Source: a virus (Duplodnaviria > Heunggongvirae > Uroviricota > Caudoviricetes). From it: a stretch of 14,499 nucleotides of DNA. Where the stretch lies: the IMG/VR virus record IMGVR_UViG_2617270990_000006; one strand, 5' to 3'. How positions within the stretch are numbered: the first letter of the stretch is position 1; each line of letters opens with the position of its first letter. Positions 1-14,450 of the stretch are shown here, in pieces. The translations under genes were made by a program, and so were the position numbers. The notes under the pieces were generated by a model. That model saw only the letters and a program-made list of their open reading frames with translations, had not been told where the DNA came from and made no database searches.

Positions 1-343
1 ATATTTGCTAATCTACTCGCCGCATTTTTAATTGACGACATAATCCAGCCATCGCTGGATTTCCCCCCCAGAAGTGCCGGATCCGAAAAGAAGAACTAAC
101 TCGTTGTGGAGAATAACAAAAATGGTCATCTGGAGCTTACAGGTGGCCATTCGTGGGACAGTATCCCTGACAGCCTACAAAACGCAATTGAAGAACGCGA
201 GGCATCGTCTTAACGAGGCACCGAGGCGTCGCATTCTTCAGATGGTTCAACCCTTAAGTTAGCGCTTATGGGACCCGCCCCCGCACCAACAACCCTGTTA
301 TCGTGTCGTCTGCTCTTCCTGATAAGCTAATGGCGGTTTGTGA

Positions 344-419
344 TGGTGGCCCTTGCTGGATTTGAACCAGCGACCTGGCGATTATGAGTCGCTCGCTCTC
401 ACCACTGAGCTAAAGGGCC
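344..419 (-). tRNA. tRNA with anticodon CAU (Ile2/ileX-like, as in ileZ of lambdoid/Stx phages; Met not excluded)
   Basis: Reverse complement GGCCCTTTAGCTCAGTGGTGAGAGCGAGCGACTCATAATCGCCAGGTCGCTGGTTCAAATCCAGCAAGGGCCACCA folds as a 76-nt cloverleaf: 7-bp acceptor stem, GCTC/GAGC D-stem, loop CTCATAA, GCTGG/CCAGC T-stem with TTCAAAT loop, encoded CCA. Close to E. coli ileX as I recall it. Confidence 0.85.
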
Positions 420-468
420 GGAAGCAGAATAATAATGGTGCGTAATTAATTCTGCAATCTCATCCGTT

Positions 469-1518
469 TCAAACGATTAAATCCTGAACTTCCCTGACTG
501 TCTGCTCAAAACGTCCGGTCTCCAGTTCAACGCCAATCGCACGACGCCCCAGTGCCATCGCCGCTTTTACCGTTGAACCCGACCCCATGAAAAAATCTGC
601 AACCAGGTCACCCGGACGACTGCTTGCGCTGATTATCTGCTGCAGCATTTCTGCCGGTTTTTCGCACGGATGTTTCCCGGGATAGAACTGCACCGGTTTA
701 TGTGTCCACACATCCGTGTACGGCACCTGCGCCGTCACACCAAAATACCGCCGCAGATGCTTATATTCACTCTGCAGCTCCACATACTGCCGGTTCAGTG
801 ACGTATACGTATCCACCAGCTGGTGGTGGGGCTTTTCCAGTTCACCGCGCTGATGTTTCTCTTCTGCCACCCGGGCAAACAGCGACTGTAATTTCAGATA
901 ATCGCTTTCGTTCGGTAGCTGCCACTGACTGGCACTGAACCAGTGCGACACCATGTTTTTCTTTCCTGTGACATCTGCAATCTGTTTTGCCGTTATCCCC
1001 AGGGCCGCGCGCGCATCACGAAAGTAAGAAATCAGCGGGGCCATCACATGCTGTTTCAGTGCACTGCCCTTCGCCGCATACCCGGCATCTTTCGGACGAT
1101 ACGGCCCCTGATAATGTTCCGCGAACAGAATGCGCTCTGTGGCGGGGAAATACGCCCGCAGGCTTTCCTTGTTGCATCCGTTCCAGCGTCCGGACGGCTT
1201 CGCCCAGATAATATGGTTCAGCACACTGAAGCGTTCACGCATCATGATTTCGATATCAGATGCCAGGCGATGACCACAGAACAGGTAAAGACTTCCGGCA
1301 GGTTTCAGCACCCGCCAGAACTGCGCCAGACACTGGTCCAGCCACTTCAGGTAATCATCGTCGCCCTTCCACTGGTTATCCCAGCCTTCAGGCTTCACTT
1401 TAAAGTACGGCGGGTCCGTGACTATCAGGTCAACAGAATTTTCGGGTAACGACCGGATAAATTCCAGGCAGTCGGCGTTGATTAACTCACAACTGGATAT
1501 TTTTACAGTATTAAGCAT
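469..1518 (-). CDS. DNA amino-methyltransferase, beta-class (N6-adenine likely, N4-cytosine possible); apparently orphan
   Basis: 349 aa with ATG start. DPPY (motif IV) lies near the N-terminus and FFMGSGST (motif I, FxGxG) near the C-terminus, the beta-class order, with a ~100-aa insert between them. No nuclease partner nearby. Confidence 0.8.
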   Translation of the reverse strand: MLNTVKISSCELINADCLEFIRSLPENSVDLIVTDPPYFKVKPEGWDNQWKGDDDYLKWLDQCLAQFWRVLKPAGSLYLFCGHRLASDIEIMMRERFSVLNHIIWAKPSGRWNGCNKESLRAYFPATERILFAEHYQGPYRPKDAGYAAKGSALKQHVMAPLISYFRDARAALGITAKQIADVTGKKNMVSHWFSASQWQLPNESDYLKLQSLFARVAEEKHQRGELEKPHHQLVDTYTSLNRQYVELQSEYKHLRRYFGVTAQVPYTDVWTHKPVQFYPGKHPCEKPAEMLQQIISASSRPGDLVADFFMGSGSTVKAAMALGRRAIGVELETGRFEQTVREVQDLIV

Positions 1519-1653
1519 GGATCATTAAGCCTGTCTCTGATAGGCTCATTCTGCTTTTGCGCAAAGCAGTGGGCCTGAGGTTTGCTTGTGAACCCAACGC
1601 ATGAGCAGATGGCTGGTGGGTGCCCCTAACACCCACCAGCCGCCCATTTACCA

Positions 1654-1682
1654 CAAATAAAAAAGCCTTCACTGCGGAAGGC
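1654..1682 (-). terminator. Intrinsic terminator (minus strand) between small ORF and methyltransferase gene
   Basis: Hairpin GCCTTC-N6-GAAGGC (1665-1682) followed on the minus strand by TTTTTTATTTG. Confidence 0.5.
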
Positions 1683-1866
1683 GTCTGTAACAACCGAACT
1701 GATAGTCTGCCAGACCCGCCATAACCAGCTGGGTCAGTATTAACTGGCAGCGTTCGCGTGAAAGGTAAGTATTCTGCGCTATCTCCCCGACTGTCGCCGG
1801 TTCGGTAACGCTTAATTCATTAAACACCACTCTGGCGGTTTCTGTCATATCCTGCTGTTTTAGCAT
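1669..1866 (-). CDS. Small hypothetical protein (65 aa from ATG at 1866), possible HTH
   Basis: The ORF-track start at 1953 is GTG; the internal ATG at 1866 has an AAGGGA SD 8 nt upstream. Lies between two terminator-like hairpins; the stop is inside the hairpin stem. No family recognised. Confidence 0.3.
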   Translation of the reverse strand: MLKQQDMTETARVVFNELSVTEPATVGEIAQNTYLSRERCQLILTQLVMAGLADYQFGCYRRLPQ

Positions 1867-1985
1867 GTCTTTTTCCCTTTTCCGGTTAACGTGACACACC
1901 AATAACTCTTGTCGAAAAAGCCAGCAAGCTGAAAGACAGGTATTCACCGCCACCAGCGCGTTTACTGTACTGACGCGATTTCAGT

Positions 1986-2010
1986 CATAAAAAACCCGCC
2001 AGGCGGCGGG
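1986..2010 (-). terminator. Intrinsic terminator just downstream of Q (tR'-like)
   Basis: Hairpin CCCGCC-AGGC-GGCGGG (1995-2010) followed on the minus strand by TTTTTTAT. Confidence 0.5.
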
Positions 2011-2059
2011 GTGTAAAAAATCTTCTAACGTCAGGCATAAAACGCCCATCGTTAGGGCA

Positions 2060-2087
2060 AATTTACCACAGATTCGGGAAAAATCAA
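2060..2087 (-). promoter_or_regulatory. Candidate sigma70 late promoter (PR'-like) at the 3' end of Q
   Basis: On the minus strand: TTGATT (plus 2082-2087), 16-nt spacer, TAAATT (plus 2060-2065). About 50 nt upstream of the 1986-2010 terminator, resembling the lambda PR'-tR' unit on which Q acts. Confidence 0.35.
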
Positions 2088-2092
2088 CAACA

Positions 2093-2914
2093 CTATCGCG
2101 TTACCCTCTTTAACTGCCGCTCCGCCCATGCCTCTTCAATGTCAAACCGAACCACCAACGTATCGTAAAAGCGTTTCACTGATTTTTTCCACGTATCAAG
2201 CGTGATAGCACTCGTCACTTTGCATATGGCATTAAATGCCTCCGTTGATGGCAGCCTTTCACAGCCACGACCACCACAACGCTGGCAATCTCTGATAACA
2301 GGCATACCACGTTTTACCGACTCTTCACGATGAATGGCGACACCACGCCCACGGCAATCCTTACAGGCGGTGGAAACCTCACCCTTTCCGCCACACTCCG
2401 GACAGGCAACTTTTACCACCTCCCTGACTTTTTTCCATTCTTCCCAGTAAGACGGATACACGCCTTTTGTGCACTTTGCCCACACTGGTGGCTTACCATC
2501 CGGATACTGGATCTTGTTTGTAAAAACCTCGCTTTCAATAAATTTTTTTCCGTGACAGCAGGGGCACTGTTTTTTGCTCGCCGCGCTACGGGCATAATCT
2601 TCAAACGCATACGAAGCCATAATGCGCATCACTACCGGTTTTATTTCTGCCGGAAGTTTTCTCAACGCCGCCACACGATCGCACCGACTGAGTGCATAAT
2701 CTGCCAGTAATTCTGTTGCCCGCGCCCTGTCATTCATACTGATGCCCATTTTCCCCAGGAACGCAGAAAACCCCATCTCAGCCCGATTCTGTGTCATGCC
2801 CTGCGCGGCCATCACATCAGTGATACTCAGCGCATCTTTTGACGTTGAGGCCGATGCATCGGTCAGGCCAGGGGATTTTGGGGAGTAGTATTTCGGTAAA
2901 TCTTCCAGTTTCAT
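2093..2914 (-). CDS. Late-gene antitermination protein Q (Cys-rich zinc-finger type)
   Basis: 273 aa with several CxxC pairs (CPCC, CPEC, CKDC, CQRC). Sits directly after rusA with an ATGA stop/start overlap at 2911-2914 and directly before the candidate late promoter and terminator. Confidence 0.7.
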   Translation of the reverse strand: MKLEDLPKYYSPKSPGLTDASASTSKDALSITDVMAAQGMTQNRAEMGFSAFLGKMGISMNDRARATELLADYALSRCDRVAALRKLPAEIKPVVMRIMASYAFEDYARSAASKKQCPCCHGKKFIESEVFTNKIQYPDGKPPVWAKCTKGVYPSYWEEWKKVREVVKVACPECGGKGEVSTACKDCRGRGVAIHREESVKRGMPVIRDCQRCGGRGCERLPSTEAFNAICKVTSAITLDTWKKSVKRFYDTLVVRFDIEEAWAERQLKRVTR

Positions 2915-3285
2915 TTTTTGACCTGCTCTTCATGCATTATGGGGTAAATCTTCACCCCCATACGTCCACCAGATACTGGCTGACCACGAACGATATTGAT
3001 TTCATCAAACTGCTCATCGTCCATTAACACTCCCGCATGCGTCAGCGCATCCAGCGGTGCTTTCAGGATATTGTCCAGGTCGCGACGACGCTTATCCGGT
3101 GGCTCTGCAATCACCTTTATCGCCAGCCTTCCGGACAGGCTTAATTTCAGCCGCTGCTGGCGAACAATAAGCGCCACAGCCCGGCGATAACGCTTTCCCT
3201 CCTCCGAGATAAAATATGTGCTGCCACGGCGTCGCCAGTAAGTGTTCACCGTCGGCGGGTAAGGTAAAACCAAATCTATGAGCAT
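2911..3285 (-). CDS. rusA: RusA-family Holliday junction resolvase
   Basis: 124 aa. PDKRRRDLDNILKAPLDALTHAG matches the RusA catalytic region (E. coli RusA [23 protein letters not shown] as recalled). ATG with GAGGTG SD. Confidence 0.9.
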   Translation of the reverse strand: MLIDLVLPYPPTVNTYWRRRGSTYFISEEGKRYRRAVALIVRQQRLKLSLSGRLAIKVIAEPPDKRRRDLDNILKAPLDALTHAGVLMDDEQFDEINIVRGQPVSGGRMGVKIYPIMHEEQVKK

Positions 3286-4794: not shown

Positions 4795-5673
4795 TCAGAC
4801 TGCAAGATCCAAGGGAAGATCAGAAATATCCTTTAATCTTTTACCATTAACCATCACGGAAAGCATGTCAGCTGCATCGCTGAGCCCCAGTATTTCAACT
4901 GCTGATATAAGTTCATAAAGCGCAAAATGATACACGCAATCTATATCACCAGTACCAAGAGCAATAGACGCCAGACGACTTGGAGTAGGCTCAGCAGTAA
5001 CAACCATTACATGAGGGAGATTTCCCTTACGGTTGCGAATAAGATTTAATGCCTCAGAACGAGCATTCTGGGCCCGGTCGCTTCTTATTGTCCATTTGCA
5101 GGAAATACTTGCGTGTAATATTGGTTTCCCACCATTCGAACTCCTGAGAGCTGACATGCGGGTAACAGAATCATCCACCAGTAATTCAGGACTGTTGATA
5201 ACTTGATCACATTCAGGTTCTCTTTCAACAATAATATCTGGTGAAATCGTATAATCACTCCCCAGTGCAGCAGCTAGCTGAGGATTACTTTTTGCAGCAC
5301 TATCCAATGCTATAAGATGGGCATATTGTTCATATTTAGCTATCTCTAATCTGTTTCTACCAGAAACCTGATGTACATTCCATTTTCCAGGGCGTAAGTG
5401 GCTGAGTTTAAAAAAGGTTTTTTCTATAAACTCTGCGCAGATACTCTCAAACTGATTACCAGATGTTTGCCCTGCAACACGTTCACCAATCGTTTCAGCC
5501 TGCAAGAAGCGAGCAATTTCTCTTGCTATAGCTTTACTGTTTTTGTTACTGCTATCTGCGTTACTAACAACTCCGGCAGTATTAATTGTGAGCGTATTCA
5601 GTAACAATTGGGCATGAAACTCCTTTCTGGCTTCAGCAAAACCAACTATGCTGTCAACCAAATCTCCATTCAT
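4795..5673 (-). CDS. Type II restriction endonuclease, NgoMIV/Cfr10I/Bse634I-like (CCGG-core site predicted)
   Basis: Preferred start is the ATG at 5673 (AAGGAAA SD 9 nt upstream, 14 nt after the methyltransferase stop); the track ORF runs to 5808 with a TTG. Motifs SPDIIV ... SCK ... E with Asp-to-Lys 47 aa and Lys-to-Glu 14 aa, the spacing I recall for NgoMIV (Asp140/Lys187/Glu201). Confidence 0.7.
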   Translation of the reverse strand: MNGDLVDSIVGFAEARKEFHAQLLLNTLTINTAGVVSNADSSNKNSKAIAREIARFLQAETIGERVAGQTSGNQFESICAEFIEKTFFKLSHLRPGKWNVHQVSGRNRLEIAKYEQYAHLIALDSAAKSNPQLAAALGSDYTISPDIIVEREPECDQVINSPELLVDDSVTRMSALRSSNGGKPILHASISCKWTIRSDRAQNARSEALNLIRNRKGNLPHVMVVTAEPTPSRLASIALGTGDIDCVYHFALYELISAVEILGLSDAADMLSVMVNGKRLKDISDLPLDLAV

Positions 5674-5686
5674 TTCTGGATTTCCT

Positions 5687-6811
5687 TCAGGCTGCTTGAC
5701 TATTCTTACTGATGTTATTCTTATACCGTCCCTGCAAAACTCCATACACATATTGTGCGATTTTTGCCGCAAATAGCGGTGGAACAGCATTCCCGATCTG
5801 CTTTGCAATCTCAGTTTTTGAACCGGTAAAAATGAAATTATCAGGAAAAGACATTAATCTCGCTGCCTCACGATGAGTTATTGGCCGATCCTCTTCCGGA
5901 TGTAAATATCGCCCTTTCTCCGGTTTGAAAAACTCAGTACGAATCGTTACTGAAGGTCTGTCCCACCACAGACGTCCAAACAAATCGGTCCCTCCAGATT
6001 TCTTTTTTAGCCAGCACGCCGGGGTTATATCAGGTCTTTTTTTCTGTAAATCGAAACGGTTACCTCCTGGTGGAACCGCTTTATATCGCTCCAAAGAAAC
6101 AGGTGTGGGATTACGCCCAAAATGTAAGTTCAGCGGAGGAAGTTCATTACGAATATCAGTTCCAACAGGAGCAGGTAAGTCACCAATTGCATCACGCGTA
6201 CAGACCCATTCAGGCAAAGCGACATCCTTATCAGGGGAACGATGCGTTGGTGCTGGCGGGAACGCCGGAATACTATGCACATCGAAGAGTTCTCGTTTGA
6301 TACCGATTGCTATCGTTCGTTTTCTTGTCTGAGGTACTCCATAGTCAGCAGTATTCAACACCATTGGATTAAGCAGAATAAAGCCCATGGATTTCGCTCT
6401 AAACGTAATGTCCGCAAACTCATCGCTTATCAGCAATCCGGGGACATTTTCCATGACGAACATACAAGCCCTTGAACGCTCAATGACATCCATATAAGGC
6501 TCCCACAATGCTCTTCGGTGATCACCATAACGATTCTTATTTAATAAACTGAATCCCTGACACGGGGGGCCACCTATGACCACATCAGCCTCAGGAACAG
6601 TATTGCTGGATGCCCACTCCTCAATATTTGCCTGAACTCCATGCAAACCAAAATTGGCATTGTAGGTATTTATAGCTGCAGCATTATTATCAATAGCAAG
6701 GATACTTTCAAAGTAGTCAGACATCTCTCCATGAAGAAAACCATAAGATAATCCACCTGCCCCACAAAAGAGGTCTATCACTCTGAATTTATTTAATTCT
6801 TTCATCCGCAT
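5687..6811 (-). CDS. DNA (cytosine-5)-methyltransferase, cognate of the adjacent endonuclease
   Basis: 374 aa with C5-MTase motifs in order: FCGAGG (I), GGPPCQGFS (IV), ENV (VI), QTRKR (VIII), GNAVPP (X). Confidence 0.9.
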   Translation of the reverse strand: MRMKELNKFRVIDLFCGAGGLSYGFLHGEMSDYFESILAIDNNAAAINTYNANFGLHGVQANIEEWASSNTVPEADVVIGGPPCQGFSLLNKNRYGDHRRALWEPYMDVIERSRACMFVMENVPGLLISDEFADITFRAKSMGFILLNPMVLNTADYGVPQTRKRTIAIGIKRELFDVHSIPAFPPAPTHRSPDKDVALPEWVCTRDAIGDLPAPVGTDIRNELPPLNLHFGRNPTPVSLERYKAVPPGGNRFDLQKKRPDITPACWLKKKSGGTDLFGRLWWDRPSVTIRTEFFKPEKGRYLHPEEDRPITHREAARLMSFPDNFIFTGSKTEIAKQIGNAVPPLFAAKIAQYVYGVLQGRYKNNISKNSQAA

Positions 6812-6989: not shown

Positions 6990-7676
6990 TCACTCCTTCT
7001 CTTCTTTTCCGTAGTGGAGTTGGCCAATTTTGATAAGAGGGCGTCCCTGAGATTTGCGGTGTAGATTGGTATCGCGCAGAGAATACACACAGCCACAATA
7101 TTCCTGCTGATAGAATTTTTCGCGCTTGCTGATTTCAATCATACGGGACGAGCCGCCCTGCTTGCGCCAGTTATAATCCCAGTACACCATACCCGGATAA
7201 TGCGCAACAGCTCGCCGCCCACACTCGTTAACCTGCTGCATATTTTTCCAGCGTGAAATGCCCAGTGAACTGCTGATCACACTGAAACCATTTTCAGCAG
7301 CGTACAACGCTGTCCGCTCAAAACGCATGTCAAAACACATGGTACAACGGATCCCCCTCTCAGGCTCCCATTCCATTCCTTTGGCACGTTCAAACCAGTT
7401 GTCGGTGTCGTAATCAGCATCGATAAACGGCACGCCGTGTTGTTCAGCAAAGCGAATATTTTCATCCTTACGAATTAAATACTCTTTCTGAGGATGAATG
7501 TTCGGGTTGTAGAAAAAGATGGTGTAGTCGATTCCCGAGGCCTGAAGCGCCTCCATCACTTCACCGGAACATGGAGCACAGCAAGAGTGCAGTAGTAGTT
7601 TGTTTGCCCCGTTTGGGAGTTCCAATTTAGGCCGTTTGAAATCAGCAATAGTCATAAATATTTTTATTGGGGTCAT
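6990..7676 (-). CDS. QueH-like protein (DUF208, epoxyqueuosine reductase family)
   Basis: 228 aa. N-terminal [13 protein letters not shown] and C-terminal YCGCVYS conserved Cys motifs as I recall for QueH/DUF208. AT-rich like the neighbouring R-M genes. No convincing SD at either candidate ATG (7676 or 7655). Confidence 0.7.
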
Positions 7677-8240: not shown

Positions 8241-9011
8241 TCACTTTTCCGACACAATACGACCGGATGAATCGACAATCTGTCGAACAATATCCCGGTG
8301 CTTGTACAGCTCCCGCAGCGCGGCGCAGACTCGCTCCCACTTCTGAACCTGACCTTTTGCCCGGCGCAGCTCGCGGTTAGCCACATGCAGCGATGGTAAA
8401 ATCAGACCATCCGGATGTTTTCTGGTGAACGACGGCTGTGACTGCACTGTGACCGCCACACTTTCAGTTTTTATTTCTTCCTGTGTTTCCGCTTCCCGGA
8501 CAGGTAACGCAATACCTGCTGGCTGAGGAATGGCTTTACCATCCGTTTCCGCTACGGATGCAGCTTCCGGCTCTGCCGGTAAATCAGCGCCCGGTATGCA
8601 GTAACGAAATTTACCGTTCTGATTTACGCGTGCCAGGCGCCCCGTTGCTGTTACGACCGCCAACGTGGAAGCAACCTTGCGAATGCTAACACCGAACTTA
8701 TCCGCCAGTTCCTCACACGTTTTAGCCCCATCCTGACAGATAAACTCAATCATCATGTCCGCGGTAACTTTTTGTTCGACCTCCCCGGTCAGCATATCCT
8801 GTGCTTCAGATTTTACTGGCCGCTCTTCGGTTACCCGGGATTCACCTTCGCCAGCCAGAAACCAGGTGTGACCAGTTTTATCAACGACGCCATTTCTTTT
8901 GAGTTCCCACAGCTCGTTGACAGCCTCTTCACGACTGATTCCAAGGCGAGCTGCCACCACATGTGAAGAGGCTTTTTTCAGTGCTTTCAGTGCGTCAAAT
9001 ACGGTTTCCAT
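8241..9011 (-). CDS. Hypothetical protein with two winged-helix-like domains (256 aa from ATG at 9011)
   Basis: The track start at 9029 is TTG; the ATG at 9011 has GGAGG 8 nt upstream. Two HTH-like segments (AARLGISREEAVNELWELKRNG and EELADKFGVSIRKVASTL), an acidic linker and a basic C-terminus. Confidence 0.55.
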   Translation of the reverse strand: METVFDALKALKKASSHVVAARLGISREEAVNELWELKRNGVVDKTGHTWFLAGEGESRVTEERPVKSEAQDMLTGEVEQKVTADMMIEFICQDGAKTCEELADKFGVSIRKVASTLAVVTATGRLARVNQNGKFRYCIPGADLPAEPEAASVAETDGKAIPQPAGIALPVREAETQEEIKTESVAVTVQSQPSFTRKHPDGLILPSLHVANRELRRAKGQVQKWERVCAALRELYKHRDIVRQIVDSSGRIVSEK

Positions 9012-11378: not shown

Positions 11379-11879
11379 ATGAAAAGAAAATCCCTGTCAG
11401 AGATCGACCTGCAAGCCGCCCAGAGACTGAAAGAAATCTGGACGGCGAAAAAAAATCAACTAGGGTTAACCCAAGAGCGTGCGGCAGAAATTCTGGGATT
11501 TTCGACACAGGGAGCTGTAAGCCATTATCTAAATGGTCAGACACCTTTAAATCTTGAGGCTGTTATCAAGTTCGCAGGGTTGCTGCAAGTTCCTCCCGAG
11601 TCAATCAGACCAGATATGGCCGAGTTGTTACAAATTGTAAGGATGTATCCCCAAGAATCTGGGGAGGACAATGTTGTCACTATATCTGCAGATATGGAAC
11701 AATCGGAAAACGAACTTCCGTTTAATATAGACCCCATGGAGCGGGATTTGCTCCAGACGTTCAGGGCTTTCCCCAAAGAAGATAAAGAGAAAATGCTTAA
11801 GGAAATGAAGGAGAAAAAAGAATCAATTGAAGAAATCGTTGCGCGATGGCTAGCTGCGCAAAAGGGTCGTCGCGCCTAA
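11379..11879 (+). CDS. paaR: Prophage repressor, HTH-XRE type without a LexA-like cleavage domain (PaaR-like)
   Basis: 166 aa. HTH LGLTQERAAEILGFSTQGAVSHYLNGQ. C-terminus is acidic/Lys-rich with no Ala-Gly or Ser/Lys peptidase motifs. First gene of a three-gene operon in the cI position. Confidence 0.7.
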   Translation: MKRKSLSEIDLQAAQRLKEIWTAKKNQLGLTQERAAEILGFSTQGAVSHYLNGQTPLNLEAVIKFAGLLQVPPESIRPDMAELLQIVRMYPQESGEDNVVTISADMEQSENELPFNIDPMERDLLQTFRAFPKEDKEKMLKEMKEKKESIEEIVARWLAAQKGRRA

Positions 11880-11896: not shown

Positions 11897-12088
11897 ATGA
11901 GTACAGCCCTTTCCCCGATAATTTCTGAATTTGAAACAGTCGAACAAGAAAACAGCTATAACGAATGGTTGCGAACCAAAGTGGCAGCAAGCCTCTCAGA
12001 TCCCCGTCCTGCAATTCCACATGACGAAGTAATGGCTGAAATGGAAAACCTTATTGCTCAATTAGCTGCAACGAACAGGAGTGAGTAA
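11897..12088 (+). CDS. paaA: Antitoxin of the ParE toxin (PaaA-like)
   Basis: 63 aa. GAGGAGG SD 7 nt upstream. Stop overlaps the toxin start (TAATG). Length and context match the PaaA2 antitoxin of the paaR2-paaA2-parE2 system as recalled. Confidence 0.65.
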   Translation: MSTALSPIISEFETVEQENSYNEWLRTKVAASLSDPRPAIPHDEVMAEMENLIAQLAATNRSE

Positions 12089-12378
12089 TGCTGCCCATTT
12101 TATGGCTACCTTCTGCACGTGATGATTTACGTCAGATCGTAGCCTATATTGCTAAGGAAAACCCTCCCGCTGCACGTAGACTAAAAATACGCATTGAAAC
12201 ATCAGTTTTGTCACTTACTGAACACCCTTATCTGTACCCACCGAGCGAAAGAGTTCCAAGTCTTCGTGAGATAGTGACTCATCCTAACTACATAATACTT
12301 TACCGAGTAACAGCATCTAACATCGAGATCGTAAATGTAGTTCACTCACGAAGACAGTATCCAAACAAAACCTGTTAA
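12088..12378 (+). CDS. parE: ParE/RelE-superfamily toxin
   Basis: 96 aa. ParE-like pattern: WLPSARDDLRQIVAYIAKENPPAARRL ... LREIVTHPNYIILYRV ... IEIVNVVHSRR. AGGAG SD; coupled to the antitoxin. Confidence 0.85.
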   Translation: MLPILWLPSARDDLRQIVAYIAKENPPAARRLKIRIETSVLSLTEHPYLYPPSERVPSLREIVTHPNYIILYRVTASNIEIVNVVHSRRQYPNKTC

Positions 12379-13236: not shown

Positions 13237-14127
13237 TCAGGCTGCCAGATCATCGTTTCCGATGGAAGCATAATAAGCTTTTTCTGCTTCTGCCGGAGGA
13301 GTATGGCCCAGCCTTCCCAGCAATCGTCGATTGTTATACCAGTCCACCCACGTTAGTGTGGCCAGTTCCACTTCTGCACGGTTTTTCCAGCTCTTACGGT
13401 GTATTACCTCCGCTTTGTAAAGACCATTGATGCTCTCAGCCATCGCGTTGTCATACGAGTCGCCTGTACTCCCTGTTGATGCCAGTAATCCGGCTTCTTT
13501 TAGTCGCTCCGTATAGGCCAGTGACACATACTGAGAGCCTTTATCGCTGTGATGGATGGTGCCAGACGGACGACGGGCCCACAACGCCTGCTCCAGCGCA
13601 TCCAGCACGAATGTCGTTTCCATAGACGATGAGACCCGCCACCCCACGATGTATCCGGCAAACACATCAATGATAAACGCCACATAGACGAAGCCCTGCC
13701 ATGTGCTGACGTAAGTAAAATCAGCCACCCACAGCTGGTCAGGTCGTTCTGCCACGAACTGACGGTTTACGCGGTCGCCTGCGGCAACGGCTTTCCGGCT
13801 GATGGTCGTACGGACCTTTTTACCCCGGAGAACACCGGCAAGTCCCATAACCGCCATGAGACGTGCCACTGTACATCTGGCCACCCTGATTCCTTCCCGT
13901 AACAACTGACGCCAGACTTTACGCACACCGTACACCTGATGATTTTCATCGTATACGCGCTGTATCTCTCTCTTCAGCCAGTCGTCGTGCTGCGCACGGG
14001 CACTGCGTTTATCCGGATGATGTCGCTGTTGCTGACAATGGTAATACGTTGACGGGGCAATATGCAGTTCGCTGCATACCGGTCCGACCCCGTACTGCTC
14101 ACGCAGCTTATCCAGCAGTGGCATCAT
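13237..14127 (-). CDS. IS3-family transposase OrfB (integrase core, DDE)
   Basis: 296 aa matching IS629 OrfB as recalled ([16 protein letters not shown] ...). DDE residues in [17 protein letters not shown] and [15 protein letters not shown] overlap with orfA. Confidence 0.9.
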
Positions 14128-14450
14128 TTTTTCCAGAGGCGGTCGAACTCCGCCTTCGCAAAATAAGCGGAAGCCTGGCGAAGGATATCGTTACTGCGGC
14201 GCAGTTCACGATTTTCACGTTCCAGCTCTTTCAGACGCTGACGTTCAGCGCTGGTGAGCCCACCATCACCGCCCCCGGTATCCCGCTCATGCTGGCGAAC
14301 CCAGACACGCAGAGTCTCCGGCGTACAGCCAATCTTTGGGGCAATGGAACAAATTGCCGCCCACTGTGAGTCATATTCATCCTGACTTTCCAGAACCATA
14401 CGAATCGCCCGCTGACGGACTTCGGGGGAAAAACGAGTATTTTTAGTCAT
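14124..14450 (-). CDS. IS3-family transposase OrfA (HTH/leucine-zipper part)
   Basis: 108 aa, [51 protein letters not shown] ..., matching IS629/IS1203 OrfA as recalled. A-rich run GGAAAAAATGA at the orfA/orfB junction suits -1 frameshifting. Confidence 0.9.

Follow-up and report, generated by a model that had tools for sequence, protein, structure and literature searches.

A probable lambda-like late-gene switch in an E. coli prophage, followed by a methylase cassette and a tRNA and cut by an insertion sequence

A Q-lambda cassette is defined by a Q gene, the promoter PR', a pause element, a terminator and late genes (PMC9388147). The Q-lambda family is assigned to PF03589, and the Q-binding element (QBE) of lambda sits at the position of the promoter spacer, between the -35 and -10 hexamers (PMC9388147). 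In Stx1 and Stx2a phages, a constitutive PR' transcript that ends at tR' in the lysogen, upstream of the tRNAs and the cargo, is known as the source of StxS (PMC7547250). A related arrangement is present in the E. coli K-12 cryptic prophage Qin (ydfT/quuQ, ydfU, rem, hokD, dicA/dicC), in which Q is followed by csp genes and small ORFs.

These systems were compared with a stretch of 14,499 nts (the window; IMG/VR record IMGVR_UViG_2617270990_000006). As judged from homology and conservation, one part of it is very probably an ordinary late-gene switch of a lambda-like E. coli prophage, made of Q, a promoter, a pause signal and a terminator, and the cassette can be typed with high confidence as late-gene regulatory, of a Qin/lambda-like E. 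coli prophage. Behind the switch come a methylase cassette, which is optional, and a rare-codon tRNA; the region is then cut by an insertion sequence. The architecture is a textbook one, already known, and adds no new biology. All the elements of the module, from Q through the tRNA, are on the minus strand, and the features listed by an earlier sequence-only reading were recovered on that strand at or near the positions given there; a regulatory layout of the textbook kind can be recovered from raw sequence without tools. The features, in the order of late transcription, are the following.

2093..2914, minus strand: antiterminator Q, 273 aa (Pfam Antiterm PF03589, E=2e-49)
2082..2087, minus strand: PR' -35 hexamer TTGATT (aligns with lambda TTGACT; kept in close relatives)
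2066..2081, minus strand: 16-nt spacer TTTCCCGAATCTGTGG, candidate QBE
2060..2065, minus strand: PR' -10 hexamer TAAATT, with TGg before it (hexamer identical to the lambda PR' -10)
2045..2053, minus strand: predicted transcription start A2053 and sigma-dependent pause element AACGAT plus GGG, +1 to +9 (identical to lambda)
2027..2053, minus strand: predicted 5'-terminal hairpin of the PR' leader RNA, +1 to +27 (minimum-free-energy fold, z=-2.9)
1989..2010, minus strand: tR', intrinsic terminator CCCGCC-GCCT-GGCGGG plus T6 (terminator scan and fold)
1669..1866, minus strand: small ORF, 65 aa, stand-alone winged-helix protein (phrog_331, E=1e-37)
1659..1682, minus strand: second intrinsic terminator GCCTTC-CGCAGT-GAAGGC plus T6 (terminator scan)
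1519..1658, minus strand: conserved structured methylase 5' leader (fold -63.4 kcal/mol, z=-3.1)
469..1518, minus strand: orphan DNA methyltransferase, 349 aa, beta-class N6-adenine type (PF01555, E=1.7e-44)
429..457, minus strand: weak candidate tRNA promoter TTGCAG, 17 nt, TATTAT (read from the sequence)
344..419, minus strand: tRNA, anticodon CAU, ileZ type, tRNA-Ile2 (ARAGORN: Met (CAT); Rfam tRNA, 72.5 bits)
1..269, no strand assigned: terminal part of IS421, IS4 family (100% identical to an IS421 copy lying within the methylase gene of L003)

Q, its promoter and the first terminator

The Q protein is the long (QuuQ-type) form of the Q-lambda family. Among PDB structures, phmmer matched it to those of Q-lambda (7ubm/4mo1), the alignment with 7ubm (E=2e-38) falling in two blocks, residues 1-113 and 182-273, so that Q is homologous to Q-lambda over both body and arm. 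Its full length (273 aa) equals that of intact relatives, and the alignment with the family covers it from end to end. Its identity to Q-lambda is only 39% and, unlike the lambda protein, it carries a 66-aa insert. Q contains four CxxCxGxG zinc motifs; the extra pair lies in this insert, at the body/arm junction.

The promoter had been read as overlapping the end of Q; it abuts the gene instead, starting 6 nt after the Q stop codon (TAG 2095-2093). The core GGTAAATTTGnnnnAACGATGGG agrees with lambda PR' at 20 of 23 bases, including the -10 TAAATT, the 6-nt spacing and the pause element AACGATGGG, which lies at 2053-2045 and is identical to that of lambda. By sequence comparison, the promoter is a real homologue of lambda PR'. 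A generic consensus scan with a cut-off of 9/12 detected no sigma-70 site at or above that score in positions 1-3000 on either strand; PR' scores 8/12 and is unlisted for this reason, so that the scan neither confirms nor refutes it, and its identity is settled by the homology to lambda. The spacer differs in sequence from that of lambda and is 16 nt long, compared to 17 nt in lambda. It is nearly invariant in relatives whose Q is 51-100% identical, and the lambda-like and Qin-like clades of Q have a different conserved spacer in place of TTTCCCGAATCTGTGG. This clade pattern fits co-evolution with Q, and the spacer is a putative QBE.

The case for the module is that promoter, pause element and terminator recur in this order downstream of Q homologues in many genera. 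It was surveyed in 39 other Q-lambda-family loci with Q proteins 38-98% identical to that of the window. An AAnnAT(GGG) element was found in 37 of them; the pause element is exact in 28 and has at most 2 changes in 9 more. Wherever a TAnnnT hexamer could be assigned, the element lies 6 nt after it; this hexamer rule located the pause element in 31 of 33 leaders. Bases A1, A2, A5 and T6 of the element are retained in nearly all variants, A2 and T6 being invariant. In close relatives the -10-like hexamer varies at positions 3 and 4 only, which is what recognition by sigma region 2 would tolerate. An intrinsic terminator starting 25-47 nt after the pause element is present in 31 of the 39 loci.

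The terminator tR' consists of a stem at 2010-1995 with 6 G-C pairs and a 4-nt loop, followed by T6 at 1994-1989. Its stem begins 50 nt past the -10 hexamer, which bears out the expected distance of about 50 nt between promoter and terminator, and is retained in relatives via compensatory or wobble changes. Terminator-like sites numbered 5 compared to 2.9 +/- 1.5 in shuffled sequences, a raw count that is not significant alone. One of these sites, at 2059-2043, was rejected as a terminator, its 5' arm being upstream of the predicted start.

Compared with the described systems, the locus shares with lambda Q/PR'/qut/tR' (6S RNA) a PF03589 Q, the -10 TAAATT, the 6-nt distance, the pause element and a downstream intrinsic terminator. 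It differs from lambda in the end of the terminated RNA, predicted at about +64 as against +194, and in the cargo genes and tRNA that lie in window-type modules between tR' and the lysis genes. With Qin, it has in common the Q family and the early-to-Q gene order, the window also containing dicA-like, YdfA (DUF1391), DUF968 (ydfU) and Q genes; in contrast, the genes that follow Q in K-12 include neither methylase nor tRNA. Loci with a Q of 250 aa, presumed to be of the Qin type from this length and an identity of about 40% to the Q of the window rather than from direct comparison with K-12, show the same -10, AACGATGGG and terminator layout; they differ in the spacer sequence. Combined, these comparisons uphold the earlier suggestion of a layout for Q-dependent antitermination: Q belongs to the Q-lambda family, and the promoter and pause element are homologous to those of lambda PR' and kept across the family.

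Promoter activity, pausing, Q binding and readthrough at this locus are modelled on the lambda paradigm, starting from its sequence features, their homology and their conservation. Q (2914-2093) would be made from the delayed-early transcript, and PR', as a constitutive sigma-70 promoter just downstream of Q, would start transcription at about A2053. Sigma-70 would re-bind the -10-like AACGAT(GGG) at +1 to +9 and RNA polymerase would pause near +16. Without Q, the polymerase would stop at tR' (2010-1989) and an RNA of ~64 nt would be released. When Q binds the promoter spacer and joins the paused complex, it would generate a termination-resistant polymerase, able to pass tR' and the second terminator and to transcribe the winged-helix ORF, the methyltransferase, the AUA-decoding tRNA and whatever follows. 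In the window copy, the transcript would run into IS421 instead of tRNA-Arg, cargo and lysis genes.

The cargo between tR' and IS421

The small ORF extends from an ATG at 1866 to a TGA stop ending at 1669 and has 334 homologues, named by NCBI as TrmB family or DprA-like winged helix. Its AlphaFold2 model (pLDDT 91) has an H-H-H-beta-hairpin topology and matches MarR/IclR winged-helix domains with a TM of about 0.8 (Foldseek). The stem of the second terminator (1682-1665, then T6) overlaps the stop codon of this ORF; in one relative (L002) the stem is retained with a different loop. In the translation of the methyltransferase, DPPY was read at residues 34-37 and FFMGSGST near the C-terminus, i.e. 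DPPY is N-terminal to the SAM-binding FxGxG, with an insert of roughly 100 aa between them. The protein matches YhdJ, M.RsrI and CcrM (NCBIfam, PDB), M.RsrI and CcrM being the nearest solved relatives. A literature search on the function of a methylase downstream of Q found nothing specific. The tRNA is identical in sequence to one that PGAP annotates as tRNA-Ile and that Stx phage records list as ileZ; from this identity it is read as Ile after lysidine modification, decoding AUA. An Rfam search at a permissive E-value gave the tRNA only, two marginal matches (P26, E=0.045, on the plus strand; plastid ycf2, antisense to the tRNA) being treated as chance.

In a set of 80 close relatives, tR' is followed by the small ORF, the methylase or both in at least 47, and immediately by the tRNA in 15. 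As judged from this presence and absence, the block of ORF and methylase is optional cargo, inserted as a cassette between tR' and the tRNA; behind the small ORF there is a terminator, and no consensus promoter of its own was detected for the cassette.

The slot taken by these genes is that of Stx phages. In the Stx2a phage Stx2_EH1910 (LC567834), the region from quuQ to stx2 is 93.9% identical over 2.7 kb, with the same order of rusA, quuQ, PR'/tR', 65-aa ORF, DNA methylase and tRNA (CAU). The phage then has two tRNA-Arg, stx2A, stx2B, iraM, a nanS-like gene and a holin, whereas the window continues into IS421. The tRNA is the same gene, at the same position, as the first one (CAU) of the ileZ-argN-argO cluster of Stx phages; the window differs in having ileZ only, argN and argO being missing or displaced beyond IS421. 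The proposal that the methylase and the tRNA occupy the tRNA/cargo slot of Stx phages is supported by a Stx2a phage with the same Q, ORF, methylase and tRNA directly upstream of stx2AB. Expression of stx2 in at least one Stx2a phage would be governed by this same module of Q, PR' and tR', and where the antiterminator is of the QuuQ type, the site of the toxin-expression switch would be marked by the pause element AACGATGGG, the short leader and the spacer specific to the clade. Homology with many Stx2 phages starts exactly at 2010, and Stx2a_1447/WGPS2-type phages have the module in common from tR' onward, with no Q gene directly upstream. The window itself contains no stx sequence, IS421 following the first tRNA, and at least one E. 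coli genome carrying the module (L001) has no stx gene in the cargo slot.

Alternatively, the downstream genes could be self-contained morons with their own promoters, expressed independently of Q in the lysogen, the two terminators merely insulating them. The small ORF is closed by its own terminator, and the small ORF, the methylase and the tRNA are found separately in relatives. Also, the candidate tRNA promoter, which ends 9 nt before the tRNA and is below the threshold of the consensus scan, is kept in two architectures, the second being that of a relative (L006) in which the tRNA directly follows tR'. Finally, the methylase leader is more conserved than the adjoining coding sequence. It contains a long hairpin at 1647-1601 and, across 7 loci, near-invariant blocks together with G-C to G-U changes, and in a locus lacking the small ORF (L039) it stands directly after tR'; this high conservation and structure hint at separate regulation. 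Against this alternative, the consensus scan gave no site in 1-3000, and no strong sigma-70 consensus promoter lies between tR' and the tRNA. Moreover, the genes are co-oriented with PR' and in intact relatives are found after it and before the lysis genes, which is where the Q-dependent stx genes are located (PMC7547250). Q-independent expression of this cargo is considered somewhat unlikely, and the two modes of expression are not mutually exclusive.

Two further elements of the methylase leader were considered and rejected. A second TGTGGTAAAT at 1655-1646 could have been a relic or duplicate of PR' but belongs to the leader of the methylase cassette: other loci have TGTGAAAAT or TGTGGAAAT in its place, it yields no consistent -10, and in L039 the leader containing the site directly follows a different terminator. 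A 33-codon ORF (ATG 1647) was rejected as coding, with mostly non-synonymous substitutions, frame-shifting indels and conservation of the hairpin nucleotides.

IS421 and the integrity of the window copy

Whatever lies just beyond the left edge had been expected to be expressed in the same way as the cargo. The next element is not late cargo; it is IS421, which interrupts the late operon. The counterpart of positions 1-269 is annotated as IS421 transposase in matching genomes, and the insertion point of the element is 75 nt past the tRNA, its transposase gene running antisense to the late transcript. Lysis and morphogenesis genes in the same orientation, present downstream in relatives, are not in the window, which reaches IS421 at 269; their absence bears on the integrity of this copy and not on its classification. 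In an E. coli prophage 99.6% identical, iraM, a nanS-like gene and the holin and lysozyme genes come after the module. Of 5,426 complete E. coli genomes, 1,064 (about a fifth) contain 80% or more of the 3-kb query.

The prophage is flanked and cut by IS elements, and the switch may control nothing useful here. Taken further, the locus would be an inactive relic, a Q-switch architecture in a probably defective, IS-ridden prophage with its late genes undriven and its elements drifting. Consistent with this are the break in the operon by IS421, an IS3-family element at the opposite end of the window (13237-14450), a deletion reaching into the tail genes after the same IS421 junction in strain 3502, and uncompensated changes of the pause element in close relatives (AATAAT, AACTAT, AAAGAT). 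However, Q is full length, and PR', the pause element and tR' of the window copy are identical to the commonest functional-looking version in relatives. In strain 14EC017, which has the same IS421 junction, the lysis genes are still present beyond the IS, as is tRNA-Arg, and polymerase modified by lambda Q can cross kilobases of foreign DNA. Inactivity is regarded as unlikely, more so than independent expression of the cargo, and a late-gene switch remains the preferred reading.

The PR' leader RNA

Leaders of 57-75 nt are the rule in Q-lambda-family loci, lambda being a long outlier. In the 5' hairpin predicted for the window, the pause element as transcribed into RNA (+1 to +5) pairs with +19 to +27. 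An analysis of the PR' leaders with MAFFT/RNAalifold found no structure, variable loop length causing misalignment of the 3' arms, and the complementarity was instead tested directly against shuffles. AACG/CGTT complementarity is retained across the family with three independent compensatory switches: both arms changed together to AACAA/TTGTT once and to AATGA/TCATT twice, in three independent lineages. A paper on NusA and RNA length (PMC4914094) does not address terminator proximity.

A last alternative, that what the locus mainly yields in the lysogen is a regulatory small RNA, the short PR'-tR' transcript, has its closest parallel in StxS, an Hfq-binding RNA given by Stx-phage PR' transcripts ended at tR' (PMC7547250), and would agree with the predicted RNA (hairpin at the 5' end, U-rich stretch inside, terminator ending in U6), the compensatory changes and the family-wide leader length; yet it is quite improbable, as the DNA-level pause element already explains most of the conserved bases, uncompensated 5'-arm changes are tolerated in close relatives and no Rfam family matches. 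StxS also differs in its full-length transcript of 258 nt, processed by RNase E, compared to the ~64 nt predicted here, and the Q-adjacent sequence of its source phages is not common to the window.

Within the late-gene switch, the short leaders as the family norm, the covarying 5' hairpin and the four-motif zinc arm of Q are comparative by-products for specialists of transcription. It is conceivable, though rather unlikely, that the short PR' leader RNA of Q-lambda-family prophages carries a selected 5' hairpin. If so, the hairpin could stabilise a constitutive StxS-like regulatory RNA or, alternatively, could act in Q loading, e.g. outside the Q nozzle, locking the modified complex.

Layout of the late-gene module and its homology to lambda

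The sequence-only reading had listed Q, a promoter, terminators, a small ORF, a methyltransferase and a tRNA, and all of these elements were recovered, on the minus strand.

Features of the late-gene module
2914..2093, minus strand: Q ORF, 273 aa (Pfam Antiterm PF03589, E=2e-49)
2095-2093, minus strand: stop codon of Q, TAG
2087-2082, minus strand: -35 element of PR', TTGATT, six bases past the Q stop codon
Between TTGATT and the -10 element, minus strand: PR' spacer, 16 nt
2065-2060, minus strand: -10 element of PR', in TGgTAAATT
2010-1995, minus strand: stem of the intrinsic terminator tR', six G-C pairs, followed by T6 (terminator scan; canonical)
1866-1669, minus strand: small ORF, 65 aa
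1682-1665, minus strand: stem of the second terminator, followed by T6 (terminator scan), overlapping the stop codon of the small ORF
1519-1658, minus strand: methylase leader, 140 nt, between the second terminator and the methylase gene
1518-469, minus strand: DNA methyltransferase (PF01555)
419-344, minus strand: tRNA, anticodon CAT

PR' was absent from the output of the generic promoter scan because it matches 8 of 12 positions and the threshold was 9 of 12, and the number of terminator-like sites was not significant (5, versus 2.9 +/- 1.5 in shuffles). Homology and comparison therefore carry the case. Judged by its sequence, Q is a member of the Q-lambda family. A search of solved structures aligned it with the Q-lambda structure 7ubm (E=2e-38) in two blocks, residues 1-113 and 182-273 of Q corresponding to residues 1-113 and 116-207 of Q-lambda, with an overall identity of 39%. 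PF03589 is the Q-lambda family, and the cassette described for it consists of the Q gene, PR', a sigma-dependent pause element, a terminator and the late genes (PMC9388147). Upon alignment of the promoter regions, 20 of 23 bases were identical between the window (GGTAAATTTGCCCTAACGATGGG) and lambda (GGTAAATTTGACTCAACGATGGG); the -10 element, the six-base distance and the AACGAT + GGG pause element are therefore the same as those of lambda. By analogy with lambda, transcription is predicted to start at A2053 and the terminated PR' RNA would end near 1989-1991, giving a transcript of ~64 nt. In the predicted fold of this leader RNA, a U-rich linker connects a 5' hairpin (+1 to +27) with the terminator.

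Relative to Q-lambda, Q carries a 66-aa insert (window 2372-2572, minus strand; residues ~115-180) at the body/arm junction. Four CxxCxGxG motifs are present in Q and two in lambda Q, the insert supplying the extra two; the two-zinc DnaJ zinc domain likewise has four. Lengths of 250-278 aa are the rule among family loci, the 207 aa of lambda being the exception, and this long form represents the majority of Enterobacterales homologues. To our knowledge, the long form has no solved structure.

Conservation of the promoter, pause element and leader in the Q family

A scan for Q relatives, limited to one genome per species, returned 69 loci. For 39 of these, lambda and three close relatives among them, the sequence following the stop codon was extracted. 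The pause element AACGATGGG was found exactly in 28 of the 39 loci and with one or two changes in nine more, and was missing in two. In every leader for which a TAnnnT hexamer was assignable (31 of 33), the pause element lies six bases past it. In 31 of the 39 loci an intrinsic terminator starts 25-47 nt past the pause element and the RNA ends at about +57 to +75, i.e. the leader is ~57-75 nt long; lambda, with tR' at +194, is the outlier. Among 80 close relatives from IMG/VR, representing 31 distinct PR'-tR' sequences, the pause hexamer varied at positions 3 and 4 only (AATGAT, AATAAT, AACAAT, AACTAT, AAAGAT and AATTAT), as would be expected of a sequence read by sigma region 2, and compensatory or wobble changes preserved pairing of the terminator stem. 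Conservation of the spacer TTTCCCGAATCTGTGG extends to Q relatives of ~51% identity, and other conserved spacers take its place in the lambda-like and Qin-like clades, a pattern that fits a clade-specific putative Q-binding element.

The PR' transcript begins with an RNA copy of the pause element, and its first 4-5 nt are complementary to (T)CGTT at +19 to +27 in almost every family member. A perfect 5-bp Watson-Crick match was present in 11 of 33 leaders; 2,000 shuffles gave 0.78 such leaders on average and at most 4. Both arms were switched in three independent lineages (AACAA/TTGTT in L024, AATGA/TCATT in L026 and L059), and we put the probability of finding three such matches by chance in seven variant loci at ~1e-4. 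Uncompensated changes in the 5' arm are present in close relatives and the constraint on the hairpin is therefore not absolute. This covariation suggests a selected 5'-terminal hairpin in the PR' leader RNA. No Rfam family covers the 5' leader hairpin, which lies at 2027-2053 (minus strand) in the window and has equivalents in the comparison locus L004 and in the loci downstream of Q homologues (L007-L066).

Proposed Q switch and the genes behind tR'

As an architecture, the module is very probably best explained by a lambda-paradigm Q switch. PR' would be constitutive and polymerase would pause at the pause element; without Q, transcription would terminate at tR', and with Q the polymerase would become termination-resistant and cross both terminators into the small ORF, the methylase, the tRNA and beyond. 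The core of the sequence-only reading, a Q-antitermination layout, is upheld by homology to lambda and conservation among relatives; its expectation for the left neighbour is wrong. The module is textbook and widely sequenced.

Three alternatives to the lambda-paradigm reading, which are non-exclusive, were weighed. The genes downstream of tR' may be transcribed from their own promoters: one candidate, TTGCAG-17 nt-TATTAT, is located at 457-429 (minus strand), ends 9 nt before the 5' end of the tRNA and is kept in L006, a relative in which the tRNA directly follows tR'. The promoter scan gave no stronger candidate than this one. The short PR'-tR' RNA may itself be a regulator like StxS (PMC7547250). 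Finally, the copy in the window may be a relic within a defective prophage.

Under the lambda-paradigm switch, the first gene reached behind tR' would be the small ORF. It encodes a real, conserved protein, matching phrog_331 and having 334 homologues, which NCBI names as TrmB family or DprA-like winged helix. AlphaFold2 modeled it (pLDDT 91) as three helices plus a beta hairpin, and the model resembles MarR/IclR winged-helix domains (TM ~0.8); as modeled, the product is a bare winged-helix domain. The methylase has DPPY near the N-terminus and FxGxG near the C-terminus, which is the beta-class order, with an insert of roughly 100 residues; among proteins of solved structure, M.RsrI and CcrM are closest to it. 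The tRNA was called Met by ARAGORN; the identical sequence is annotated as tRNA-Ile by PGAP and as ileZ in Stx phage records.

The leader of the methylase gene is highly structured (z=-3.1), with a long hairpin at 1647-1601 and several invariant blocks. Across loci of ~84% identity it is better conserved than the adjoining coding sequence, and most of the changes in it turn G-C into G-U. A 33-codon ORF within it does not look coding.

Relatives, the left edge and the rest of the prophage

The 3-kb query was covered to at least 80% in 1,064 of 5,426 complete E. coli genomes. The genes that come after the module are tRNA-Arg, iraM, a nanS-like esterase, holin and lysozyme in strain FDAARGOS_1259 (99.6% identity of the module), and two tRNA-Arg genes and stx2AB in phage Stx2_EH1910 (93.9%). 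Many Stx2 phages have only positions 2010 to 312 in common with the window, so that their homology starts exactly at the tR' stem. The small ORF and/or the methylase follow tR' in at least 47 of 80 close relatives and the tRNA follows it directly in 15 of 80; the ORF and methylase are also found apart from each other, and the block they form is optional. In the WGPS2-type Stx2a phages (Stx2a_1447, 1380-1530), the same module of ORF, methylase, tRNA and stx2 begins at a tR'-like terminator, and upstream of it lie two oppositely oriented genes, not a Q gene. The spacer between tRNA-Ile and tRNA-Arg is ~100 nt in FDAARGOS_1259 (8700-8760), compared to 7-9 nt in Stx phages.

The left-edge neighbour had been expected to be expressed like late cargo. 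The end of an IS421 copy that interrupts the methylase gene in another strain (L003) matches window 1-269 with 100% identity, and matching genomes carry an IS421 transposase annotation here; in the window the IS421 end is inserted 75 nt past the tRNA, with the transposase gene antisense to late transcription. The immediate left neighbour is IS421 and the expectation therefore fails for it, DNA further out being outside that verdict. Strain 14EC017 shares the junction of methylase, tRNA and IS421 and carries tRNA-Arg and lysis genes beyond the IS; in strain 3502 the IS is followed by a deletion into tail genes. The insertion of the IS421 end past the tRNA is common to several E. coli genomes (L003, L006, L158) whose upstream modules differ: the methylase is present in some and absent in others, and the antiterminator is of the Q-lambda type or of the DUF1133 type.

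At the right end (13237-14450, minus strand) lies an IS3-family element, with HTH_Tnp_1 in orfA and the rve integrase core in orfB; insertion sequences therefore flank the prophage segment on both sides. A PaaA2/ParE-type toxin-antitoxin pair (11897-12378, plus strand) adjoins a dicA-like repressor gene (11379-11879). The early region contains a QueH-like epoxyqueuosine reductase gene (6990-7676, minus strand; PF02677, E=1e-65), an unusual tRNA-modification cargo, and the nin region a type II restriction-modification pair (4795-6811, minus strand), consisting of an NgoMIV-family endonuclease (PF09015, E=1e-126) and a C5-cytosine methyltransferase (PF00145), whose ORFs overlap as listed.
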